Below are positions 24,586 to 24,933 of a stretch of 64,000 nt of DNA, one piece after another. A model generated the notes under the pieces. It was not told the origin of the DNA and searched no databases. It saw only the letters and a program-made list of their open reading frames with translations. The DNA comes from Escherichia phage Pu-Krd-SF6, in the sequence record PQ759886. The stretch is one strand, 5' to 3'. Positions within the stretch are counted from its first letter, which is position 1. The number at the start of each line of letters is the position of its first letter. Position numbers and translations under genes: made by a program.

Positions 24586-24933
24586 ATGAATTTTAATTAT
24601 TACCCTATTCTATTAGAAAAAGACGCGAAACAACCAAAATGGCAGGGTCCTCAGTTTATTAAAGGTGTCTATCAATTAGTAGTTCCTAAAGACAAGATTT
24701 ATAGTAGCTGTTTCAATGAATCCGCTTGCAGTATTTTCGGTAATAGTTCTCCATATTGGAATTTTGACATAAAGCTGGATAGAAATATCGATATTTGGTT
24801 GAAAGCTATGGATATTGGTAATATCACGTTTGATGAGAATAATTATCATATTATTGGTCGTTTTTCCAAACGCGGTAAAGAATTATATTTCGCGCCTGAA
24901 ATTGAGAGAAAATTTGATGCTAAACCGTATTAA
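24586..24933 (+). CDS. hypothetical protein, inserted between frd and td
   Basis: 115-aa ORF with upstream GGCGGA ribosome-binding site; no recognisable motif; frd and td are contiguous in T4. Confidence 0.55.
   Translation: MNFNYYPILLEKDAKQPKWQGPQFIKGVYQLVVPKDKIYSSCFNESACSIFGNSSPYWNFDIKLDRNIDIWLKAMDIGNITFDENNYHIIGRFSKRGKELYFAPEIERKFDAKPY

Follow-up and report, generated by a model that had tools for sequence, protein, structure and literature searches.

The 115-codon ORF that lies between frd and td in Escherichia phage Pu-Krd-SF6 is shown, by its substitution pattern and its conservation at the protein level, to be a genuine protein-coding gene under purifying selection. As judged from comparisons among T4-like phages, this gene is very probably ancestral at the frd-td site, and the direct overlap of frd and td in phage T4 would be a derived deletion allele. 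On the whole, the explanation that we consider likely is that of a real, ancestral gene, lost by deletion in T4-type phages, whose product would be a small non-enzymatic binder. Hundreds of GenBank records already list the gene, as a 'hypothetical protein', and it belongs to the catalogued family phrog_1928, so that the finding itself is not new. The original prediction, which described the ORF as an insertion between two genes that overlap in T4, is confirmed as an observation and partly supported in its interpretation.

Organization of the frd-td region

The window (the whole stretch of 64,000 nucleotides analysed here, sequence record PQ759886) belongs to a Tequatrovirus. The 701 bp around the ORF are 100% identical to the corresponding region of Escherichia phage Pu-Krd-SF7 and 97-98% identical to that of many T-even-type phages. 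The genes follow one another in the order gene 32, homologues of frd.3, frd.2 and frd.1, an 81-aa ORF, frd, the 115-codon ORF and td exon 1, and td exon 2 is followed on its 3' side by nrdA.2, nrdA.1 and nrdA. The features of the region are:

21743-22648: gene 32 (ORF listing)
23985..24566, plus strand: frd, dihydrofolate reductase, 193 aa, upstream neighbour (ORF listing)
24567..24585, plus strand: frd-to-ORF spacer, 19 nt, containing GGCGG (24577-24581), a partial Shine-Dalgarno sequence
24586..24933, plus strand: ORF A, gene for a 115-aa protein (13.6 kDa, pI 8.5), member of phrog_1928 (ORF listing, PHROG match, tblastn, dN/dS, AlphaFold2)
24934..24977, plus strand: ORF-to-td spacer, 44 nt, with a promoter-like element (read by eye)
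24978..25529, plus strand: td exon 1, thymidylate synthase, downstream neighbour (ORF listing)
25530-26539: td group I intron
25658-26395: I-TevI ORF inside the td group I intron (ORF listing)
up to 26854: td exon 2 (ORF listing)

The gap between frd and td (24567..24977) measures 411 bp and contains the 115-aa ORF with its ATG start. These coordinates, the size of the gap and the protein sequence had been predicted exactly, as the ORF listing shows. The statement that frd and td overlap directly in T4 was equally correct: in NC_000866, frd is located at 145109..145690 and td ends at 145112, resulting in a 4-bp ATGA overlap with no ORF in between. The T4 reference therefore does not carry the gene at this junction. 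The ORF had also been credited with its own ribosome-binding site. Some Shine-Dalgarno sequence is indeed present, but it is only partial, since the GGCGG located 4 nt before the ORF start has one mismatch to GGAGG. Whereas the window has a spacer of 19 nt at this position, Mosigvirus SF and other genera have none, and the start of the ORF overlaps the frd stop codon (ATGA).

The spacer between the ORF and td contains TAGCTTCA at positions 24938-24945, followed by TATAAT at 24956-24961. This candidate element resembles a T4 middle (MotA-type) promoter, its putative MotA box having one mismatch, and the equivalent stretch is annotated as 'promoter' in the record of phage Lutter. A simple scan for sigma-70 promoters and terminators revealed no enrichment and did not flag the TAGCTTCA...TATAAT site. 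In phages F2 and SF, about 30 nt of this spacer are missing, which amounts to most of the promoter-like stretch. A search of positions 23500-27500 against Rfam at a relaxed threshold matched no family. This includes the td group I intron with I-TevI, which is present as in T4 and yet gave no match even at E<=0.1, probably due to its interruption by the endonuclease ORF. In Bas39, T2, F2 and SF, td is intron-less and the 115-aa ORF is still carried.

A second gene of this region is likewise missing from T4. It is the 81-aa ORF at 23740-23985 on the plus strand (phrog_3183, E=4e-43), located between frd.1 and frd, at the site of which T4 has only a 71-bp gap; no homologue was found anywhere in the T4 genome. 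T2, T6, RB3, Bas39 and Lutter have an ORF of 243-246 nt at this position.

A conserved gene under purifying selection

Searching with the 115-aa protein by tblastn identified 559 phage records, 362 of them with at least 90% amino acid identity and 197 below 60%. The protein matches phrog_1928 of PHROGs v4 with an E-value of 4.2e-35, residues 4-111 aligning to positions 2-125 of the 126 profile positions. This family is listed in PHROGs as being of unknown function, and all of its cluster names read 'hypothetical'. Hundreds of deposited proteins are 96-100% identical to that encoded in the window, and nothing material distinguishes the latter from phrog_1928. Only 22 clusters matched when 1.84 billion representative proteins were searched with HMMER, the best 20 all being about 95-116 aa long. 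A word-indexed protein search returned no more than 3, 2 and 4 relatives per query, and exhaustive HMMER was needed for the rest.

In an alignment of 27 sequences that share 26-97% identity, Q16, W19, G27, G91, K95 and G97 are invariant, and N79, F93 and F102 are conserved in at least 90% of the sequences. The window protein has the family motifs, namely Q-x-x-W near the N-terminus, G-N, and the hairpin I-I-G-R-F-x-K-x-G-x-x-x-x-F. Homologues at the same locus were found down to 27% identity, with a range of 27-67% in other Tevenvirinae genera.

The dN/dS values of the ORF (Nei-Gojobori; window, T2, T6, RB3, Bas39, Lutter, F2 and Mosigvirus SF) range from 0.00 to 0.10. For the same genomes, the values are 0.03-0.09 for td exon 1 and 0.07-0.25 for frd. 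This indicates that the ORF is as constrained as the gene for thymidylate synthase. Among close copies nearly all substitutions are synonymous, T2 and T6 for instance differing by 11 synonymous and 0 non-synonymous changes. The window copy deviates from the common Tequatrovirus protein by T44N (24715-24717) and T103A (24892-24894), the other compared Tequatrovirus copies having Thr at both positions.

The chance that the ORF is a spurious reading frame in non-coding spacer DNA is next to nil. Such a view could draw on the weak Shine-Dalgarno sequence and on the T2 record LC348380, in which the ORF is not annotated. However, the ORF is intact in T2, its close relatives differ by synonymous changes only, the protein is conserved down to 27% identity and its structure is predicted with confidence (pLDDT 91.5). 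A spurious ORF is thus ruled out by the dN/dS values and the conservation at the protein level. As for the annotation of these records, the intact ORF of T2 lies unannotated at L014:1324-1671 and td is labelled 'hypothetical protein' there, while the T6 record AP018814 labels I-TevI as 'RNA polymerase sigma factor for late transcription'.

A family located downstream of frd in T4-like phages

The searches show phrog_1928 to be restricted to T4-like (Tevenvirinae) phages. In all genomes examined the family is located between frd and td, where from 0 to 3 paralogues stand in tandem; in some cases an unrelated 68-aa gene (phrog_9550) comes after them. It should be noted that this position is an empirical feature of the family found here, and not part of a published definition. 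The members that go under the name of 'hypothetical protein' in T2, T6, RB3 (RB3_232), ECML-134, HY01, Shfl2 and others occupy the same frd-td position as the ORF in the window. Members directly downstream of frd are found in Tequatrovirus, Mosigvirus, Jiaodavirus, Kanagawavirus, Moonvirus and Gelderlandvirus, and also in Serratia phage CHI14, in Edwardsiella and Pectobacterium phages and in metagenomic T4-like contigs. The loci that were inspected and have a member after frd include those of Jiaodavirus JD18, Kanagawavirus IME523, Moonvirus Moon, Gelderlandvirus CGG4-1, Klebsiella phage phi1_146055, Serratia phage CHI14 and the metagenomic contigs L011, L012 and L024. Outside the T-even-type genera, the member usually overlaps its neighbours by stop and start codons.

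At most of these loci a second gene follows, which is a paralogue (B) of the ORF described here (A). The two are related with an hhalign probability of 99.1% (E 4e-19), and both belong to phrog_1928. Paralogue B, which occurs in Moonvirus, Kanagawavirus, Gelderlandvirus, CHI14 and Klebsiella phages (e.g. CPT_Moon253), has the motifs QKKW ... HGxY ... GRFxKxGxxxxF in common with the ORF but, unlike A, contains an insert of roughly 15 residues after the QKKW motif. A search with paralogue B matched 122 records, none of them above 60% identity and with no Tequatrovirus among the matches listed. In contig L012 and phage phi1_146055, both paralogues are present, A before B, and the 68-aa gene comes after them. 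The largest expansion of phrog_1928 that was seen is on metagenomic T4-like contig L024 (SRR28387184), where the frd-td interval contains a 76-aa ORF in addition to three tandem paralogues of 148, 106 and 95 aa (L024:2745-3788). No second copy of the family was found in the window, and a six-frame HMM search of the whole T4 genome detected no member, the best E-value being 0.5.

Three alleles at the junction in T-even-type phages

The whole ORF-bearing query is spanned by 352 of 518 related records, T2, T6 and RB3 among them. The T4-type overlap was found in 32 records, all but one of which are identical over the 45-nt probe; its carriers are T4 stocks, RB55, RB59, vB_EcoM_112, HY03, SG1, G28, F1, FN, JEP6, FL12, FL18 and G2133. 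In about 135 records the 68-aa gene (phrog_9550) is present at the junction with at least 95% identity. Since these numbers add up to 519, the three alleles cover essentially all records. The ORF is therefore not the rarity that had been expected, as about 68% of the T-even-type records carry it.

The 68-aa gene was located at L004:3100-3306 (phage IME537), L005:2100-2306 (BYEP01), L012:4670-4879 and L009:3148-3354. Its product is very basic (pI 10.3) and 98.5% identical between Dhakavirus JS98 and Tequatrovirus, with about 79% identity in Klebsiella phages. Homologues with 43% identity occur in Phapecoctavirus (phAPEC8-like) phages, which are not T4-like. The possibility that this gene is a truncated relative of the 115-aa ORF was considered and rejected, the two being unrelated.

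In RB3 (L013:722-1336) and F2 (L017:894-1511), the run of A residues at the end of frd, equivalent to window positions 24555-24566, is two bases longer (TATAAAAATGA versus TATAAATGA). This puts the frd stop codon out of frame, so that the annotated frd gains 11-12 codons and runs into the start of the 115-aa ORF.

Probable ancestry, deletion and exchange

The two ends of the frd-td gap are marked by a 9-bp direct repeat:

24560..24568: left copy of TAAATGAAA, containing the frd stop codon at 24564-24566 (alignment with T2, T6, RB3 and T4)
24975..24983: right copy of TAAATGAAA, containing the td start codon at 24978-24980 (sequence)

The copies are 415 bp apart, and T4 retains exactly one of them, with the right-hand flank after it, which is the outcome expected of a deletion. 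In Mosigvirus SF, TAAATGAA is present at both ends of the ORF copy, and in RB69, a Mosigvirus without the gene, the junction is collapsed in the same way next to a diverged frd. These findings suggest that the deletion was mediated by the repeats and that it either recurred or was exchanged between genera. Deletions of this class, with short direct repeats at their ends, are well known in T4. The overlap allele would arise by recombination or slippage between copies of a short direct repeat, TAAATGAA(A), whose recurrence is explained by the end of frd and the start of each downstream gene having this sequence in common. In mixed infections, homologous recombination in the flanking frd and td sequences could subsequently pass alleles with and without the ORF from one phage to another. 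The simplest history would be that of an old multi-gene cassette between frd and td, of which the T-even lineages kept gene A, the 68-aa gene, or nothing.

Identities between the window and contig L012 are 63% for the ORF, 49% for Frd and 87% for Td. The divergence of the ORF thus scales with that of its neighbours, which fits vertical descent. When the locus of Mosigvirus SF (L016:917-2724) was compared with window positions 23985-25529, Frd was found to be 58% identical, the 115-aa ORF 92% and Td exon 1 93%. This sharp change in similarity indicates a probable breakpoint of inter-genus recombination at or near the frd stop codon. An ORF identity of 92% next to an Frd identity of 58% implies that the cassette can also be gained by recombination and that the ORF-bearing state may be secondary in any single lineage. 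Exchange is likewise seen in the 68-aa gene, with its 98.5% identity between Dhakavirus JS98 and Tequatrovirus.

One feature speaks against the deletion reading. Reading on from the left repeat gives ATGAAATAA, similar to a td start (ATGAAACAA) that has mutated. By itself, this could represent a duplication that resulted from an insertion event, but it is outweighed by the phylogenetic spread of the family. At the frd stop codon, positions 24563-24571 of the window read as a mini-ORF, ATG AAA TAA, the form that the td start (ATG AAA CAA) would take after a C-to-T change; this may be due to chance or may be the relic of a rearrangement.

The reading that goes back to the original prediction is that a junction otherwise conserved has recently received an accessory gene, for example one that serves anti-defence or host takeover. 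We regard this as improbable. The presence or absence of the gene is polymorphic within two genera, an alternative gene occurs at the same junction, and the tandem copies expand and contract between 0 and 3, a pattern that is often seen in genes for host interaction. Moreover, the gene is dispensable in T4, and in Mosigvirus SF it has evidently been gained by recombination. As to its functional half, a host-directed binder, the proposal overlaps with the explanation that we favour, and the view of the ORF as a dispensable accessory gene of unknown function has held up. The 'inserted' half, however, is at odds with a family that directly follows frd in at least eight other Tevenvirinae genera and that diverges in proportion to its flanking genes. 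The T4-type overlap is a minority of about 6%, essentially one lineage with one identical junction. In addition, the dN/dS is very low, and no resemblance to a described anti-defence protein was found in the libraries searched, which were general ones and one of defence proteins.

A free-standing homing endonuclease or another selfish mobile cassette would account for a polymorphic locus that adjoins the I-TevI-bearing td intron, in phages related to T4 with its genome rich in seg and mob genes, and the gene is indeed annotated as 'putative homing endonuclease' in the BASEL phages FriedrichMiescher and FelixPlatter. Like the ORF, the Seg and Mob endonucleases of T-even phages are polymorphic in their presence between conserved genes and can be moved by recombination in the flanks. 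Nevertheless, this interpretation has hardly any likelihood left. No GIY-YIG, HNH, LAGLIDADG or other Pfam domain was found in the 27 family members, in agreement with the earlier statement that the protein has no homing-endonuclease or other recognisable motif. Its 115 aa amount to about half the length of a Seg or Mob protein. Deeply diverged orthologues and tandem paralogues with vertical divergence occupy one fixed locus instead of being scattered, neither the window nor T4 holds a further copy, and the ORF is found both with and without the td intron. A homing endonuclease is therefore effectively refuted at the motif level. The annotation as glucose-1-phosphate adenylyltransferase in SF2-1, pSe_SNUABM_01 and BW-1 is spurious, as 115 aa compare with an NTP-transferase domain of about 400 aa and the protein has no Pfam or NCBIfam match.

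Properties and possible function of the protein

The relatives of the 13.6-kDa protein have pI values of 6.9-9.5, the protein itself having one of 8.5. It lacks a catalytic motif, a signal peptide and a membrane segment. From its AlphaFold2 model (pLDDT 91.5), we infer a soluble, mostly basic, single-domain and beta-rich protein that has one helix and a topology weakly resembling an OB-fold. Searches of Pfam and NCBIfam with the protein gave no match, and Pfam searches with 27 relatives gave scattered noise from single members, no family being matched by more than one of them. PADLOC-DB, a library of defence rather than anti-defence proteins, contained 0 matching families at E<=10. Sequence searches of the PDB with the protein and with the family profile yielded noise only (E>=0.05), the confident model had no fold match in the PDB, and Foldseek against BFVD retrieved only uncharacterised proteins of T4-like phages, those of Aeromonas phages included. 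Homology to a known protein, which had been named as an outcome that would contradict the prediction, was thus looked for and only uncharacterised relatives were found. A literature search retrieved nothing on the 115-aa gene between frd and td. Among the closest known systems to the putative OB-like protein are the OB-fold nucleic-acid-binding domains of HIN, Teb1/RPA, S1, SSB and PriB. Predicted binding of nucleic acid (ssDNA, RNA) or oligosaccharide, as in OB-folds, has the basic pI as the one property in its favour.

Several genes of the T4 gene 32-frd-td-nrdA cluster, namely frd.1 (DUF5417), frd.2, frd.3, nrdA.1 (DUF4326) and nrdA.2, are comparable to the ORF in being short, co-oriented, tightly packed and of unknown function, and also in that not all T4-like phages have them and that growth in the laboratory does not require them. 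The ORF differs from them in that its sequence is unrelated and in that it is missing from T4, for which reason it escaped the T4 gene nomenclature.

We propose, tentatively and with somewhat more doubt than confidence, that the product is a small non-enzymatic binder with pre-replicative expression that confers a niche-specific advantage. It would act by binding rather than by catalysis, would be made together with the pre-replicative genes of nucleotide metabolism, before DNA replication, and would bind a conserved host or phage partner, be it protein or nucleic acid. On laboratory E. coli it would be dispensable, as exemplified by T4. The presence or absence of the gene, its 0-3 copies and its dispensability in T4 and RB69 point to such a niche-specific accessory role. 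However, a very low dN/dS is unusual for a protein that is engaged in an arms race with host factors.

The fixed position and the td-like constraint leave a role in thymidylate and dNTP supply as the main rival. In that case the product would be an auxiliary factor that binds Frd, Td, the dNTP-synthesising complex or their mRNAs and tunes dTMP supply, and its place between frd and td would reflect function, not only inheritance. We consider this rather unlikely, but it has several observations on its side. None of the genomes seen has the gene anywhere but between frd and td, and its frequent start/stop overlaps with the neighbours suggest translational coupling. Purifying selection is as strong as on td, with which the ORF appears to travel as a block in Mosigvirus SF, and a basic, OB-like predicted protein fits nucleic-acid binding. 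On the other hand, T4 and RB69 make dTMP normally without a family member, the copy number varies and an unrelated gene can fill the slot. Moreover, T4-like genomes are syntenic throughout, which makes position alone weak evidence. A combined and more speculative idea, to which we attach a low probability, is that phrog_1928 represents a structurally new family of small early-phage binders that regulate or protect the supply of thymidylate and dNTPs, for example against host nucleotide depletion or against defence directed at folate or thymidylate. If this were true, the difference between T2 and T6 with the ORF and T4 without it would underlie a difference in host range.

Implications

The results of use are a corrected polarity, in which T4 would have lost the gene, a junction with three alleles, and a characterised family without a fold match. 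Being tightly conserved, restricted to T4-like phages and variable in copy number, with no structural or functional assignment, phrog_1928 is a reasonable though not urgent candidate for functional studies, and T4, naturally without the gene, offers an easy comparison with T2 and T6, which have it. The junction provides a clean natural example of three alternative alleles, the 115-aa gene, the 68-aa gene and nothing, which appear to owe their origin to deletion between short repeats and to have been moved from genus to genus by recombination. The main value of our findings lies in a correction. It is the phages with the 'extra' ORF, T2 and T6 among them, that represent the common condition, and the textbook frd/td overlap of T4 would be a minority deletion allele and not the ancestral state of T4-like phages.
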